DNA of 64,000 nt, taken from assembly GCA_022562055.1 (NCBI GenBank), contig JADFQA010000011.1:11273-75272 (forward strand). Reading direction: 5' to 3'. A program made the translations under genes and the position numbers. This document shows, piece by piece, positions 6,555-26,385 of the stretch (its first letter is position 1; each line of letters begins with the position of its first letter). The notes under the pieces are model-generated. The model saw only the letters and a list, made by a program, of their open reading frames with translations, did no database searches and was not told the DNA's origin. The DNA is from Acidobacteriota bacterium (GTDB lineage: Bacteria; Actinomycetota; Acidimicrobiia; Spongiisociales; UBA5794).

Positions 6555-7762
6555 AACTCGTCGCCGCACTTGTTGCGTCCGTCGCCGGATCGATGTTGGT
6601 GTTCGAGTTCACGATGTCGCCCACGGCCGCCGAGCGCGTGCACCTTCTTCAGATGTTCGTCCCATTGGCTATCTTGACGGCCCTGCTGTGTGGCGTAGTT
6701 CTGCGATTCTCACGCCGCCTCGGATCGCTGCGGACCGAGATCGTTGTGCTTGCGGTCGCCTCGACCGCCATCGTCGTCGCAGCCGCCGCCGTCACGGCAC
6801 GGTTGATGTTTATCGAAGTACACGACTTGCAGTTGCTGTTCGTTGTCCTTGCGTTCGGTCTCTCGCTCGGGATCACCCTGGCGGTCACCGTTGCGCGACC
6901 GTTGGCTGAAGACTTGCGGCGGATGGAACAAGCCGCCCGCCGTGTCGCGAGTGGTGACCTCAGCACAACGACCGGCGTCGTCCGGCCTGACGAACTTGGT
7001 CGGACCGCAGCGGCCTTTGACTCGATGGTTGCCAAACTCGCTGATGTTGACCGCGAGCGTCTCGCGCTAGAAACCGAACGGCGCGAATTCCTCGCCGCCA
7101 TCGGGCATGACCTGCGAACACCCTTGGCGGCTCTGCAGGCAGCAGTGGAGGCACTTGAAGACGGCGTCGCACGCGATCCTGCCCGCTATTTGCGCTCGAT
7201 GCGGAGCGATGTCGATGCGTTGCGACACATGGTTGAGGATCTGTTCACGTTGTCAACGATCGAGGCTGGACGGTATGTCATGAAGTTCCATCCCACCGAT
7301 CTCGGCGAACTCATCGACGAAACGGTCGACGCACTCCACCCAACAGCGGCTTCTTCTGGCGTGACGCTCTCGGTTCCGCACCCTGAGGCACTCCCGATTG
7401 CGGCTGATGACGCCGCACTTCGTCGTGTGTTGCGCAACCTCGTCGACAACGCAATTCGATATGCGGGTGATGGTGGGTCGGTGACCCTCTCTGGCGTAAG
7501 AGTCGGCGACACAGCGGTGGTATCTGTGCGCGATAGCGGTCCGGGGTTTCCCGCTCTGTTCGTGGAGCAGGCCTTCGATTCGTTCTCAATGGTCGATCCG
7601 GCACGGCACCGTGACTCTGGCGGGGCAGGTCTTGGCCTTGCGATTGCCCGCGGTCTCGTCGAAGGGCACGGGGGAATAATCCAGGCATTTCCCGGTCCGG
7701 GCGGGCGTGTCGACTTCAGCTTGCCGATCTCGAGCAGCGCGCCAACGGTGTCTTCGTCGTAG
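6551..7762 (+). CDS. sensor histidine kinase (TM + HAMP + HisKA + HATPase_c)
   Basis: GTG start overlapping RR stop; H-box IGHDLRTPLAALQAAVEAL; N box LRNLVDNAIRYA; G boxes DSGPGF, GLGLAIARGLVEGHGG. Confidence 0.85.
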   Translation: MKLVAALVASVAGSMLVFEFTMSPTAAERVHLLQMFVPLAILTALLCGVVLRFSRRLGSLRTEIVVLAVASTAIVVAAAAVTARLMFIEVHDLQLLFVVLAFGLSLGITLAVTVARPLAEDLRRMEQAARRVASGDLSTTTGVVRPDELGRTAAAFDSMVAKLADVDRERLALETERREFLAAIGHDLRTPLAALQAAVEALEDGVARDPARYLRSMRSDVDALRHMVEDLFTLSTIEAGRYVMKFHPTDLGELIDETVDALHPTAASSGVTLSVPHPEALPIAADDAALRRVLRNLVDNAIRYAGDGGSVTLSGVRVGDTAVVSVRDSGPGFPALFVEQAFDSFSMVDPARHRDSGGAGLGLAIARGLVEGHGGIIQAFPGPGGRVDFSLPISSSAPTVSSS

Positions 7763-22304: not shown

Positions 22305-23201
22305 ATGAACGAATCCCTTGAGTCGCCATTTGGACCGGTATTGACCGCTGTCCTCACTCCGTTTGATGAAGCAGGCGCGGTTGACTACGAGACGTTCTGG
22401 CGGCTTGTGCGGCACCTCCTCGAAAACGGATCAGACGGGGTTGTCGTCGCCGGAACCACCGGGGAGTCGCCAACCCTGTCAAAGGTCGAAAAGATCGCAA
22501 TGTTCAAGGCCGCGGTCGAAGCTGCTGCAGGCAGAGGTGTCGTGATCGCCGGCACCGGAACGTACAACACTGCGGAGTCGGTCGAGATGACGCAGCGCGC
22601 CGCGGATCTCGGCTGTGACGGCGTCATGGCGGTGACGCCGTACTACTCAAAACCGCCCCAGGAAGGAATCTACCGGCATTTCATGGCGATCGCCGATGCG
22701 ACCGACCTTCCGCTGGTGGTCTACAACATTCCGGGGCGCACCTCGCGTCTGATCGAAGTCGACACCATGGCGCGCATCACGGAACATCCGCGGGTCGTGG
22801 CCATCAAAGACGCCACCGAGGATTTGGATTACGCCGACAAACAGTTCGCGGCGATCGACGGGCAGGCCGCGGTCTACTCAGGTGCTGATGCGTTCACGCT
22901 CGAGCTGCTTCGCCGCGGCGGCATCGGGGTTATTTCGGTGGCCGCACATCTGGTCGGCAACCAGGTCAGGGCGATGGTCGACGCGTACATTGCGGGTGAA
23001 GAGGAACAAGCGCAAGACCTCCACGATCTGATGTCCGATGTTGTTGACTCACTGTTTCTGGAACCGAACCCGATGGGTCTCAAGGCCGCAATGTCGTCGT
23101 TGTGGGGTGCGGTCGGTGACCCGCGGCTTCCTCTGATTCAGGCACAAGGGCAGACGCTGCATCTGATAGAGGTCGGTGTTAGAAAGGTTCTCGGTCAATG
23201 A
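22305..23201 (+). CDS. dapA: 4-hydroxy-tetrahydrodipicolinate synthase
   Basis: start ATG 22305 (MNESLESPFGPVLTAVLTPF); GTTGES, catalytic Lys region YNIPGRT; upstream 147 codons of ORF are antisense artefact. Confidence 0.9.
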   Translation: MNESLESPFGPVLTAVLTPFDEAGAVDYETFWRLVRHLLENGSDGVVVAGTTGESPTLSKVEKIAMFKAAVEAAAGRGVVIAGTGTYNTAESVEMTQRAADLGCDGVMAVTPYYSKPPQEGIYRHFMAIADATDLPLVVYNIPGRTSRLIEVDTMARITEHPRVVAIKDATEDLDYADKQFAAIDGQAAVYSGADAFTLELLRRGGIGVISVAAHLVGNQVRAMVDAYIAGEEEQAQDLHDLMSDVVDSLFLEPNPMGLKAAMSSLWGAVGDPRLPLIQAQGQTLHLIEVGVRKVLGQ

Positions 23202-24829
23202 CAGTAAAGGTTGGATTTCTCGGGGGCCTCGGCGAGATCGGTCGAAATTGTGCCGTGATCGAGGTCGATGGAAAGCTTGCGATGATCGACTGCGGTCTGA
23301 TGTTCCCAGAGGCCGAAATGCTGGGCGTGGACCTTGTCTTGCCTGACTTTTCTTGGGTACTCGACCGGGCAGAAGACGTCGAGTGTGTCGTGCTGACGCA
23401 TGGCCACGAGGACCATGTTGGTTCGCTAGCGTATTTCCTGCGCGAGGTGAACGTGCCCGTGTATGGGACTCGTATGGCTGTGAACTTCGCAAAGTCACGT
23501 GTGGAGGAACTCGGCGTTGAGCCCGACCTTCGCGCTCTCGAAACCAATGAGTGGGTCGAGCACGGTCCGTTTAAGTTCACGCTGGTTCGGGTTGCACATT
23601 CGACCCCCCAGGCGGCAGGTGTCGTGTTCGACACACCTCAAGGGTTGATCGTGCACTCGGGTGACTTCAAGCTCGACCCGACGCCAATCGACAACAACCC
23701 GACTGATCTGCAGACATTCGCCGGTTTCGGGCGGCAAGGCGTCAGGCTGTTGCTTGCCGACTCCACGAATGCAGAGGTGCCCGGTGTGGTCCCGTCCGAG
23801 CGTACCGTTGGCCCTCACCTGACCGCCCTGACCGCGGAGGCGGAGGGGCGGGTGATCATTGCGTGTTTTGCAAGCCATGTCCACCGTGTGCAACAGGCGA
23901 TCCATGCTGTGACCGCTGCGGGGCGCAAGTTTGCGTTTCTAGGTAGGTCGATGATCCGCATGTCAGCGATTGCCCGTGATCTCGGGCTTCTCGATTTCAA
24001 TGACGAGGATGTCCTTGAGATGGATGATCTTCTGGAGCTACCGGACTACGAGACCGCGGTGATATGTACCGGTTCGCAGGGTGAGCCGTTTGCTGCGCTT
24101 TCGTTGATGGCTGCGGGTCAGCATCGTCACATCAAACTCGATGACAACGACACGGTGATCATTTCAGCGACGCCGATTCCTGGGAACGAGTCGAAAGTCT
24201 CGCGGGTGATCAACAATCTCACCAGGAGGGGTGTGACGGTTCACCACGGGCGGAACGCAACCGTGCACGTCAGTGGACACGCTGCGCAGGAGGAACTCAA
24301 GACCTTTCTGAACATCATCAAACCGCAGTCGTTCATTCCGGTGCACGGCGAGTATCGCCACCTTGATGCACATGCCAAGATCGCTCGCCTGATGGGTGTC
24401 CCAGACGTCCACATCCTCGAAGATGGCGACATGATCATTTTGGAGGATGACGGCGAAGCCAGAATCGAGCGGGGGGCGTTTCCAGCGGGCTACGTGTACT
24501 TGGATGGTCACGGGATCGGAGACGTTGATGGTGTGCTGCGAGACCGCAGACATCTTGCCGATGACGGGGTCGTGATCGTGACCCTTGGTGTTGATATGCA
24601 GAGCGGTGCAATCATCTTTGGCCCCGACGTGGATAGCCACGGGCTCACAGACGAGCCCGAGGAGATCCACAAGATGGTGCGCGAGCGTGTCACGTCGGGC
24701 ATTACGTCTCTCGACACACCGCTCGATCACGACACGGTGCGGTCCAAGGTTCGCTCAATGACCGGCCGCGCCGTCAAATCTCATCTGGCCCGCCGCCCAG
24801 TGGTGTTCCCAGTAATCATCGAGGTTTAA
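23198..24829 (+). CDS. rnj: ribonuclease J (metallo-beta-lactamase/beta-CASP)
   Basis: ATGA overlap with dapA; HGHEDHVGSLAYFL motif, 543 aa. Confidence 0.9.
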   Translation: MTVKVGFLGGLGEIGRNCAVIEVDGKLAMIDCGLMFPEAEMLGVDLVLPDFSWVLDRAEDVECVVLTHGHEDHVGSLAYFLREVNVPVYGTRMAVNFAKSRVEELGVEPDLRALETNEWVEHGPFKFTLVRVAHSTPQAAGVVFDTPQGLIVHSGDFKLDPTPIDNNPTDLQTFAGFGRQGVRLLLADSTNAEVPGVVPSERTVGPHLTALTAEAEGRVIIACFASHVHRVQQAIHAVTAAGRKFAFLGRSMIRMSAIARDLGLLDFNDEDVLEMDDLLELPDYETAVICTGSQGEPFAALSLMAAGQHRHIKLDDNDTVIISATPIPGNESKVSRVINNLTRRGVTVHHGRNATVHVSGHAAQEELKTFLNIIKPQSFIPVHGEYRHLDAHAKIARLMGVPDVHILEDGDMIILEDDGEARIERGAFPAGYVYLDGHGIGDVDGVLRDRRHLADDGVVIVTLGVDMQSGAIIFGPDVDSHGLTDEPEEIHKMVRERVTSGITSLDTPLDHDTVRSKVRSMTGRAVKSHLARRPVVFPVIIEV

Positions 24830-24859
24830 TAGTTCTGGCCCACGGTGGTGGGCCGCCCG

Positions 24860-25075
24860 CTAGGTGGCAGCCAGCCGCTCGAGAAGTTCCTGATTTCGTT
24901 CCATTGCGGCCGCGAGCTGTTTCTGGAACGCAGGGTCGTTGCGCCGACTCTCGATGCGATCGGCGATCGCTCTTCTGATCTCCTCAGTCACAGTTGTGTC
25001 CTCAACCTGAGCGATGGCCTCGAGGTCGGCCGCGACGTCGGTGGCGAGCCGCAGTGTCAATGCCTTGGTGTTCAT
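24860..25075 (-). CDS. ribbon-helix-helix (CopG/Arc-type) protein, antitoxin-like
   Basis: 71 aa, MNTKALTLRLATDVAADLEAIAQVEDTTVTEEIRRAI... beta-strand-helix-helix pattern. Confidence 0.6.
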   Translation of the reverse strand: MNTKALTLRLATDVAADLEAIAQVEDTTVTEEIRRAIADRIESRRNDPAFQKQLAAAMERNQELLERLAAT

Positions 25076-25213
25076 GAGCGTCTCCTCGTAGTTGGTCGGC
25101 GCCGGCGTAACGTTTTGTCAGCGCGTTGCGTTACGTTGCGTTGGATCTTCCAACATCTTATGTCTAAATATCCAGATGTCAAGATATCAACCAATAGTGG
25201 TGTAAACGCGTGT

Positions 25214-25602
25214 ATGTTTGAAATTCCCATCGACGAATACCTTGCAATCGCATCCGTCGTACTCAACGTTGATGTTGCCTCGATCTTGAGGACTACCGAC
25301 CTTGGTCTTGCAGACTCGGCTCTACATGCGCCGTTTGCTGGATTCGGCGACATGAGTTCTACGCGTCAGATAGCGCGAAAGCCGGTGTTCTCCTGGTCAG
25401 ACTCATCAAGAACCATCCACTTGTCGATGGCAACAAACGTACGGCCTTGCTAACGACAATGCGCTTTCTTGAACTGGCAGGCTACTCGTGGAGCGTCGGC
25501 CCGACCGATGCGTTTGAAAAGTTGCTTGCTATTGCTGCGGGCGAAATGCGTGAAAATGCCGCTACTCGCTGGATGTCCGAGACAGCCGCTCGAATCCCCT
25601 GA
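25214..25602 (+). pseudogene. doc: Doc (Fic-family death-on-curing) toxin, frameshifted near 25352
   Basis: N-frame MFEIPIDEYLAIASVVLNV...LHAPFAGFGD then -1 shift into ...EFYASDSAKAGVLLVRLIKNHPLVDGNKRTALLTTMRFLELAGYSW... (Doc motif HxFx(D/E)GNKR); 389 nt, not a multiple of 3. Confidence 0.7.
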
Positions 25603-25752
25603 TCGATGACCGTTGGTCATCCGGACCTCTATTGATCCGCGCTTGGATCGGCCACTCATTGAGTGGTCAAGCGGGGTGGGCGCTACAGTTGTATCAGACT
25701 CGACGTTTGGCATTGCCAGTCGTGAGCACACTGACGGAATCTGGAGGGGTCC

Positions 25753-26172
25753 ATGGGAGCGGAACTACGAAACCCGAGAAGATGGGTTTCGTCCAAGGGC
25801 TGGTCATTCCTCGTCCTCGGGGCCGCGGTCGTCGCTGTCGTGGCGCTTTCGCTATCGCTATTGCCTAGCGGTGCAGCGGAGACGATCGTCCAGGATTGTG
25901 ATCTGGCGGATTTCGTAGAGAACGATCTGTCTGAAGCATCCGGACGCTTGCCGTCGGGCGAGCTGGTGCGGGTTCTCACGATCGCAGCTGCCAGCGAAAC
26001 GGATGCCATCTCGGTGCGTAAGGCTGTCTTCAGCGAATGCGCAGACTCAGGTGCCTCGATCGTTAGCGATGGAGTTCTGACGATGTCGTGGCGCACGGCG
26101 TGTGGCTCAGGGCTGCTGATGCGCTCCGGTGAAGACAGCATCGTTGTCATTGTCGAGGCCCCGACCTGCTGA
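25753..26172 (+). CDS. small secreted/exported protein, function unknown
   Basis: 139 aa with N-terminal signal peptide WSFLVLGAAVVAVVALSLSLLPSGAAE; the long antisense ORF over it is Arg-rich and rejected. Confidence 0.5.
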   Translation: MGAELRNPRRWVSSKGWSFLVLGAAVVAVVALSLSLLPSGAAETIVQDCDLADFVENDLSEASGRLPSGELVRVLTIAAASETDAISVRKAVFSECADSGASIVSDGVLTMSWRTACGSGLLMRSGEDSIVVIVEAPTC

Positions 26173-26385
26173 ACGGTCGCTGCGCTTTCGCCTCCTTCGT
26201 CGGTGACGCTGCGCTCCATCGTGTCGGCTCCGCCGACTTGAATGGGTAGGTCGTTGGGCCGATGGAACCGCTGTGGTGGCCAAGGTTCTTGGTTCAGCTT
26301 TGCTGAACGGTCGCTGCGCTTTCGCCTCCTTCGTCGGTGACGCTGCGCTCCATCGTGTCGGCTCCGCCGACTTGAATGGGTAGGT
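26167..26385. repeat. ~85-bp direct repeat (two copies, 134-bp period) duplicating the 3' end/stop codon of the upstream gene
   Basis: tgctgaacggtcgctgcgctttcgcctccttcgtcggtgacgctgcgctccatcgtgtcggctccgccgacttgaatgggtaggt at 26167..26251 and 26301..26385; each copy contains hairpin GTCGGC-tcc-GCCGAC. Confidence 0.85.

Follow-up and report, generated by a model that had tools for sequence, protein, structure and literature searches.

The 64,000-nt window analysed here (GenBank assembly GCA_022562055.1, contig JADFQA010000011.1, positions 11,273 to 75,272 of the forward strand) carries, on opposite strands and reading apart, an intact gene for a small ribbon-helix-helix (RHH) protein and a frameshifted gene of the Doc (death-on-curing) toxin family. 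The two genes are separated by a 138-bp spacer (25076-25213) with a GC content of 49%, and of 43-44% at its centre, as compared with 59% over the whole 64-kb window. The features of the locus, in window coordinates, are the following:

24860-25075, minus strand: intact gene for the putative RHH antitoxin, a 71-aa open reading frame (ORF; MNTKALTLRL...ERNQELLERLAAT)
25082-25087, minus strand: Shine-Dalgarno site GAGGAG, 6 nt before the RHH ATG, as read from the sequence
25124-25132 and 25134-25142, unstranded: direct repeat CGTTGCGTT-A-CGTTGCGTT, copies 10 nt apart
25155-25182, minus strand: sigma-70-like promoter facing RHH, with -35 TTGACA at 25182-25177, a 16-nt spacer and -10 TAAGAT at 25160-25155
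25159-25188, unstranded: array of four boxes with an exact 8-bp period, TATGTC-TA-AATATC-CA-GATGTC-AA-GATATC
25214-25351, plus strand: N-terminal part of Doc, codons 1-46, frame A, from the ATG at 25214 (MFEIPIDEY...LHAPFAGFGD)
25351/25352, plus strand: 1-bp deletion giving a -1 frameshift, placed by alignment to the intact gene on contig L001
25351-25602, plus strand: C-terminal part of Doc, frame B (HEFYASDSAKAGVLLVRLIKNHPLVDGNKRTA...LELAGYSW..., stop at 25600-25602)

Past the lesion, frame A continues as nonsense to a TAA at 25451-25453. The alignment (GGCGA-CATGAG in the window versus GGCAACCAGGAG in L001) showed that one C of a CC pair had been lost, and the repaired 129-aa protein, which joins the two frames, matched the Pfam Fic/DOC family PF02661 (35.2 bits, cut-off 24, E = 2.3e-8). 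The Doc-type catalytic motif, sought as H-x-[F/L]-x-[D/N]-[A/G]-N-K-R, in which K-R replaces the G-R of AMPylating Fic proteins, is present as HPLVDGNKR at 25414-25440 in frame B, and its residues N, H, P, L, D, G, N, K and R were invariant across 39 relatives. A profile of the family matched the solved structures 9vzc_A (E = 2e-10) and P1 Doc 3k33_A (E = 0.004), supporting membership of the Doc family at the family level. In the window copy, however, the domain does not lie in a single uninterrupted frame: the lesion cuts off the N-terminal 46 codons from the part with the catalytic motif HPLVDGNKR, which has no canonical start of its own, the first ATG, GTG or TTG of frame B being a TTG at 25447, downstream of the motif. 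In the public record, the sole product annotated here is an 86-aa "Fic family protein" from frame B (P0002).

The start of Doc at 25214 agrees with the family alignment. Gene callers begin the corresponding 147-aa sister protein at an in-frame ATG equivalent to 25160, a start that we rejected, as the extension does not align to the family N-terminus. When compared with L001, the stretch 25160-25213 carries six non-synonymous and one synonymous differences, with a ratio of non-synonymous to synonymous substitution rates (dN/dS) of 1.66, and because it thus looks non-coding we placed the true start at 25214.

Several elements of this description had been proposed in an earlier note on the same DNA, and they were borne out: the Doc reading frame with a -1 shift at about 25352, the 71-aa RHH protein on the opposite strand, and the AT-rich 138-bp spacer with its direct repeats. 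The note had also raised the possibility that a phd-like ORF upstream of doc on the same strand had been missed; none was found among the spacer ORFs or with Pfam. The only plus-strand ORF of the spacer, of 37 aa at 25092-25205, was considered as an antitoxin and set aside, having no Pfam match.

In our view the locus is probably a recently inactivated head-to-head RHH-Doc module, a toxin-antitoxin (TA) pair of type II, situated in an insertion between the rnj and ftsK genes of an Acidimicrobiia genome. The hallmark activity of Doc toxins is the phosphorylation of EF-Tu, with arrest of translation; both the regulation of the locus and the toxicity of its Doc protein are predicted here from sequence alone.

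The best database relative of the window Doc, P0001, is intact and 81% identical, and is encoded on the 1354-bp contig L001 together with the same three genes (RHH, Doc and a 139-aa gene described below) in the same orientations. This sister lineage is 87.7% identical to the window at the DNA level, and has an intact Doc in the same divergent layout. Eight more of its contigs (L091-L098) show a full-length Doc and the divergent arrangement, with ftsK downstream on L091, the sole contig long enough to reach it. To place this layout within the family, we scanned 80 genome loci (species representatives) and 80 metagenome loci, the latter ordered by their similarity to the Doc of a divergent locus, scoring each by its nearest RHH homologue and assessing Doc integrity by a strict test. 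The layout was divergent in 4/80 genome loci and 21/80 metagenome loci, and in all 12 of the metagenome loci that came closest to the query Doc. The 115 co-directional loci comprised 113 with an intact Doc and 2 with a broken one; the 25 divergent loci comprised 22 and 3, respectively. Together with the window itself, we collected 27 divergent loci (26 further ones) in which an RHH gene is paired with Doc on the opposite strand and the two read apart. In a neighbour-joining tree of Doc proteins, 23 divergent loci fell in one clade, within which identity to the L046 reference drops to ~41%. Because the sister lineage and 22 of the 25 further divergent loci keep an intact Doc, the head-to-head layout is a conserved, inherited and apparently functional architecture that is older than the frameshift.

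The strongest competing explanation, advanced in the earlier note, is that the divergent layout itself arose through decay, toxin and antitoxin having been uncoupled by a rearrangement before the toxin was lost. The broken Doc of the window would fit this, as would the greater frequency of broken Doc genes in divergent than in co-directional loci (3/25 versus 2/115; Fisher p = 0.04), although this excess is only a hint, given the small numbers and a test that ignores kinship. Decay, however, does not account for the full-length Doc genes retained in most other divergent loci and in all eight additional sister-lineage contigs, nor for the depth of the divergent clade, whose Doc identities of ~41% argue for long persistence under selection; moreover, both genes carry recognisable, and different, expression signals. 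We therefore regard the decay origin of the layout as unlikely. The note's picture of a dying TA locus consequently holds in one part, that of an inactivated toxin beside a retained regulator (Doc is frameshifted and the RHH gene intact), and fails in the other, that of the opposite-strand arrangement as a symptom of decay.

The inversion would have arisen twice according to the Doc tree and up to five times according to the RHH tree; neighbour-joining trees of proteins of 70-130 aa cannot settle the number.

The RHH protein, which is 97% identical to its counterpart in the sister lineage, is predicted to be the cognate antitoxin of Doc because it is homologous over its whole length to the antitoxins usually encoded ahead of Docs of this family. 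The relatives L002, L003 and L004, whose Docs are 52-53% identical to that of the window, have a co-directional RHH gene of 69 aa immediately upstream of Doc, with a 4-bp overlap between the two. The window protein is 46-49% identical to these antitoxins over its full length, in an alignment that takes in the C-terminal ...RRNDP.F......ER..ELLERLA part. A profile of the RHH family matched the CopG-family regulators 6IYA and 7ETR in the PDB (E = 0.01-0.015), and the homologues carry precomputed weak matches to PF01402. We observed a third arrangement in this Doc family, in which related Docs lacking an RHH gene (L037, 3819-3992; L066, 3797-3964; L129, L137 and L177, ~1300-1473) have instead a same-strand ORF of 50-67 aa that lacks an RHH domain and has a basic N-terminus, its C-terminal ...HRET..RLGK resembling the C-terminus of the RHH antitoxins. 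Since this segment recurs in non-RHH antitoxins of related Docs, the antitoxin C-terminus (...RE.L.RLA) would fit the role of the toxin-binding part.

It is improbable, in light of these comparisons, that the RHH protein is an independent transcription factor that merely happens to lie beside a Doc remnant. Its position on the opposite strand with a promoter of its own, its weak Pfam RHH matches and its survival after the loss of Doc would all suit such a protein; they are outweighed by homology that runs the full length, C-terminal segment included, to antitoxins overlapping Doc by 4 bp, by the pairing of RHH with Doc in 27 divergent loci, and by the recurrence of the C-terminal motif in antitoxins of another type.

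The window derives from a metagenome-assembled genome (MAG), in which single-base indels are a typical assembly error, and the repaired Doc is otherwise pristine; the frameshift could accordingly be an artefact in a gene that is truly intact, the alternative that the earlier note had kept in reserve. The exact window RHH protein, however, recurs on five further contigs (L086-L090), which derive from other runs or assemblies, and all of them carry the same deletion. Three (L086, L087 and L089) show 100% identity with the window throughout 931 nt, and L090 has a single substitution in the 669 nt that it covers. The fifth, L088, has in addition a second 1-bp deletion in Doc at ~25477 (GAACTGGCAGG to GAACTG-CAGG), which could be further decay or an assembly error. 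These sequences come from SRR12886643, ERZ27267408, ERZ27267425, ERZ23499143 and SRR28285075, the first of which may be the read set of the MAG itself. The affected site is a CC pair with no long homopolymer, and intact and deleted alleles were both assembled under closely numbered run and sample identifiers, which argues against a systematic error. Since the same deletion recurs in L086-L090, it is very unlikely to be an assembly error and should be taken as a real mutation; the lesion is carried by a population across several samples.

Inactivation also appears to be recent, because the repaired protein keeps every invariant residue of the family (all 26 columns that are invariant in an alignment of 39 sequences) and its dN/dS against the sister lineage is still 0.35 (0.22 before the break and 0.41 after it); the corresponding value for RHH is 0.05. 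That the split Doc still functions, by programmed frameshifting or as two reassembling fragments, is the least probable of the explanations considered, for although the conserved residues are all kept on both sides of the break and an 86-aa product of frame B has been annotated, there is neither a slippery heptamer nor a homopolymer at GGCGACATGAG, the first possible start of frame B comes after the catalytic motif, the sister lineage and all other relatives have Doc in a single frame, and one variant bears the further frameshift described above.

Lesions were also seen elsewhere among the relatives. Two Doc genes that are unrelated to each other (L118, 1483-1874, and L032, 3971-4372) have in-frame stops, TAG and TAA respectively, in the same alignment column, just after (H/A)AP, and are otherwise pristine; the window frameshift lies about four codons downstream of this column. 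As L078 has a Q at that column, the shared position could be due to C-to-T changes in a Gln codon. A gene call in L005 (3001-3612; P0064) is a 203-aa RHH-Doc fusion, in which RHH loses its normal C-terminus and reads into Doc, probably through a frameshift in a co-directional pair. In the divergent locus L147 (1068-1379) it is RHH that is frameshifted, losing its C-terminal segment, and Doc is full length; if real, this would leave the toxin with no neutralising partner, an assembly error being the alternative.

Comparison of the two layouts indicates how their expression signals are distributed. Ahead of the RHH start in co-directional loci, a stretch of 24 nt shows the consensus ...gTGaTAtCATGacgnC, and TGnTAnnnT occurs exactly 6 nt before the start in 67/111 loci, a spacing that we read as the signature of a leaderless transcript made from an extended -10 promoter. 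The same DNA can also be read as hexamers of the GATACC/GGTATC type with an 8-bp period; one or more of these boxes were present in the 120 nt upstream of RHH in 71/109 loci, as compared with 2/99 and 0/100 control stretches. In divergent loci, the TGnTAnnnT/box element is found before Doc and not before RHH. GATACC/GGTATC was present in 17/26 divergent spacers (null maximum 10) and GGTATCAA in 10/26 (null maximum 4), with most copies located 9-20 nt ahead of the start of Doc; in the 27 divergent spacers we counted 16 TGnTAnnnT matches within 40 nt before Doc, and 17 of these spacers had chains of boxes with a period of 8. The motif common to the family is a GATAYC-type box repeated every 8 bp. 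It overlaps promoter elements, and binding to it is predicted.

The RHH genes of divergent loci carry signals of another kind. A Shine-Dalgarno-like motif precedes RHH in 17/27 divergent loci and in 18/111 co-directional ones, and precedes Doc in only 1/27 divergent loci. A -35/-10 promoter (at least 9/12 positions) faces RHH in 10/27 divergent spacers, the shuffled mean being 2.1 and the maximum 7.

In the window, the promoter facing RHH (TTGACA-16-TAAGAT) matches the consensus at 10/12 positions and is the only promoter-like match in 24700-25800, where 0.4 would be expected by chance; it lies inside a 32-nt block (25153-25184) that is identical to L001. The four-box array is positioned 26-55 nt upstream of the Doc ATG and is interlaced with this promoter: boxes 2 and 3 lie between the hexamers, box 1 overlaps the -10, box 3 overlaps the -35 and box 4 is just beyond the -35. 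The underlying pattern, ATRTCNNN repeated four times, was found at no other place in the 64-kb window and in 0/100 shuffles, and the array is our best candidate for the RHH operator. Like the promoter, it falls in the 32-nt block shared with the sister lineage, save for a change there in the fourth box. The RHH repressors MetJ, Arc, CopG and omega bind tandem short boxes, those of MetJ being the 8-bp met boxes; the candidate operator resembles theirs in being an array of short boxes and in its 8-bp repeat, but its box sequence is unrelated. A consensus scan found no Doc-facing promoter in the window, the best match of a further scan reaching 7/12 (TCCAGA-16-AATAGT).

The direct repeat CGTTGCGTT had been put forward in the earlier note as a possible operator. 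It belongs to a run of four pentamers (GCGTT GCGTT ACGTT GCGTT, 25123-25142) that would fall in the 5' leader of RHH. The sister lineage has GCGTT TCGTT ACGTT GCGGT at this place, so that each 9-mer copy has a substitution, and the repeat was not noticed in the other divergent spacers by inspection, no formal search having been run. Because it is altered in the sister lineage and unseen in other divergent spacers, we consider it a weaker operator candidate than the family's GATAYC-type boxes, and possibly a second site. No Rfam match was found in the spacer region at E up to 1, and a search on either side of the RHH gene for inverted repeats through which it might have been turned round returned only chance-type matches of 8-13 nt.

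These patterns are consistent with a model in which inversion of the RHH gene would, in most divergent loci, have left Doc with the ancestral leaderless extended -10 promoter TGnTAnnnT and its GATAYC boxes, and the inverted RHH gene would have acquired a -35/-10 promoter and a Shine-Dalgarno site for itself. The boxes with the 8-bp period (in the window, 25159-25188) would be bound by dimers of RHH, either free or in complex with Doc through the C-terminal ...ERNQELLERLA. Bound there, they would block the RHH promoter and would also be placed just upstream of Doc, so that both promoters would be repressed from one shared operator. With Doc dead, as in the window, RHH would persist as an autoregulated orphan antitoxin, which could neutralise a related incoming Doc. 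We put forward more tentatively, and with somewhat less than even confidence, that head-to-head RHH-Doc pairs form a distinct and evolutionarily stable regulatory class of type II systems, with the toxin on the ancestral autoregulated leaderless promoter, the antitoxin on a separate promoter with a Shine-Dalgarno site, and one array of 8-bp boxes shared by the two.

Several observations weigh against this reading of the locus. With regard to the proteins, the Pfam RHH-type matches of the window protein were all under the cut-offs (RHH_1, E = 0.36; DUF6290, E = 0.003; RelB_antitoxin, E = 0.005), so that it is not placed in RHH_1 above threshold, and the repaired Doc scored 36.9 bits against NCBIfam TIGR01550 (DOC_P1), narrowly below the cut-off of 38.65. 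With regard to the DNA, TGnTAnnnT is absent before the Doc ATG in both the window and the sister lineage, and in both the array lies 26-55 nt upstream of Doc and not at ~14 nt. Conservation of the boxes could reflect the promoter element that they overlap instead of an operator, and the fourth box, GATATC (25183-25188), reads GATGTT in the sister lineage; because of this change we set aside the single GATATC palindrome as the shared element and relied on the periodic array of four boxes. Finally, the window lineage fell outside the large divergent clade in one tree, although in an earlier, smaller tree it was sister to part of that clade, and its inversion may therefore have been a separate event.

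The nearest comparison is with the co-directional RHH-Doc modules of Actinomycetota (Acidimicrobiia, Solirubrobacterales), which carry the annotation "type II toxin-antitoxin system death-on-curing family toxin" and share with the window locus homologous Doc (about 50% identical) and RHH (46-49%) proteins, the motif NHPL(P/V)DGNKR and the GATAYC-type boxes. In those modules RHH comes first, overlaps Doc by 4 bp and is served together with it by one predicted leaderless extended -10 promoter, whereas in the window RHH is inverted, with its own promoter and Shine-Dalgarno site, and Doc is frameshifted. By profile, the closest solved relative of the window Doc is 9VZC, a "Death-on-curing family protein". 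The Phd-Doc system of P1 (PDB 3K33) has a toxin of the same Fic-fold family with the same Doc-type NKR motif, and autoregulation by the antitoxin would be expected for both; the window differs from it in having an antitoxin of the RHH and not the Phd/YefM type, a divergent layout in place of the phd-doc operon, and a toxin that is a pseudogene.

A canonical type II system is a bicistronic operon on one strand with one autoregulated promoter (PMC7167474). The window locus departs from this organisation, yet its RHH gene does lie adjacent to the toxin and is homologous to the known antitoxins of the toxin's family. A 2020 review recognises only antitoxin-first and toxin-first organisations, both of them bicistronic operons with an autoregulated promoter (PMC7167474); the listing in a 2016 review of antitoxins contains no divergent pair (PMC4803016), and a comparative-genomic survey of 2009 mapped co-directed neighbours only (PMC2701414). 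Partial uncoupling similar to that of the window is seen in mqsRA, hicAB and rnlAB, in which gene order is reversed and an extra antitoxin promoter does not drive the toxin; these pairs, however, lie on one strand and are still co-transcribed as operons (PMC7167474), whereas the window genes share no transcript. In the rac prophage of E. coli, the small regulator gene racR adjoins, and is transcribed divergently from, the toxic genes ydaS and ydaT that it represses; the protein families are unrelated to those studied here, and RacR is reported to act by repressing transcription (PMC5700377). No description of a divergently transcribed protein-protein TA pair was found in the open-access full-text literature that we searched. 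The window locus on its own is an ordinary toxin pseudogene, and the head-to-head RHH-Doc arrangement a modestly novel and apparently undescribed variant.

The genomic surroundings of the module are as follows:

23198-24829, plus strand: rnj, the RNase J gene, preceded by dapA, on the upstream side of the module
25753-26172, plus strand: a 139-aa gene with no assigned function and no Pfam match, which travels with the module in both lineages
from 26409: ftsK, downstream of the 139-aa gene

In L179 and L180, whose RNase J is 86% identical to that of the window, ftsK follows rnj after 100 bp (positions 6630-6729), and the RHH, Doc and 139-aa genes are absent, as at an empty site. Because rnj directly precedes ftsK in these two contigs, the segment from ~24830 to ~26300, comprising the RHH, Doc and 139-aa genes, is an insertion of ~1.5 kb in a conserved dapA-rnj-ftsK neighbourhood. 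The 139-aa gene was found in L001 and L086-L098 and was not seen beside other divergent RHH-Doc loci, L046 and L057 having different neighbours; its product has a hydrophobic N-terminal segment and several cysteines. Between this gene and ftsK is a perfect 85-nt direct repeat (26167-26251 and 26301-26385, starts 134 nt apart), the second copy of which matches the ancestral rnj-ftsK intergenic DNA as in L179; the repeat may be an insertion scar or a local duplication. On the other side, a GC-rich hairpin at 24837-24854 (GGCCCAC-GGTG-GTGGGCC), read from the sequence, occupies the gap in which rnj and the RHH gene converge; it has no T-run and may be a terminator shared by the two.

The left flank of the sister lineage is different. 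There, the DNA past the RHH stop encodes a transposase-like C-terminus (...YFEKRLNDGKTKREAIRALKRQISDRVW...; L094, 1394-1529, and L091, 3899-3984), which we take to be of the IS110 family, and the contigs with RNase J stop right after rnj. This points to a copy of an insertion sequence between rnj and RHH, which would explain why the left flank differs and why contigs break there. The named relatives of the window RNase J are all Acidimicrobiia, at ~70% identity, and the relatives of Doc and RHH come almost all from MAGs of Actinomycetota. The source MAG is labelled "Acidobacteria bacterium", a label that looks wrong given these relatives.

Taken by itself, the window offers an ordinary case of a chromosomal toxin that is dying and an antitoxin that survives it. 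The locus nevertheless exposed a clade of Doc modules in which toxin and antitoxin would never be on one transcript. If the proposed arrangement is correct, the ratio of toxin to antitoxin would be set by two promoters and not by operon coupling, the toxin could be induced alone, and the separate promoters may make loss of the toxin more frequent. Surveys that pair only co-directed neighbours (e.g., PMC2701414) would miss head-to-head systems, which suggests that divergent pairs may be under-counted in TA catalogues. As the same proteins and the same boxes occur in both layouts, the family provides a natural comparison for whether toxin control needs operon coupling, and can show how a shared operator serves two promoters and whether uncoupling speeds the loss of the toxin.

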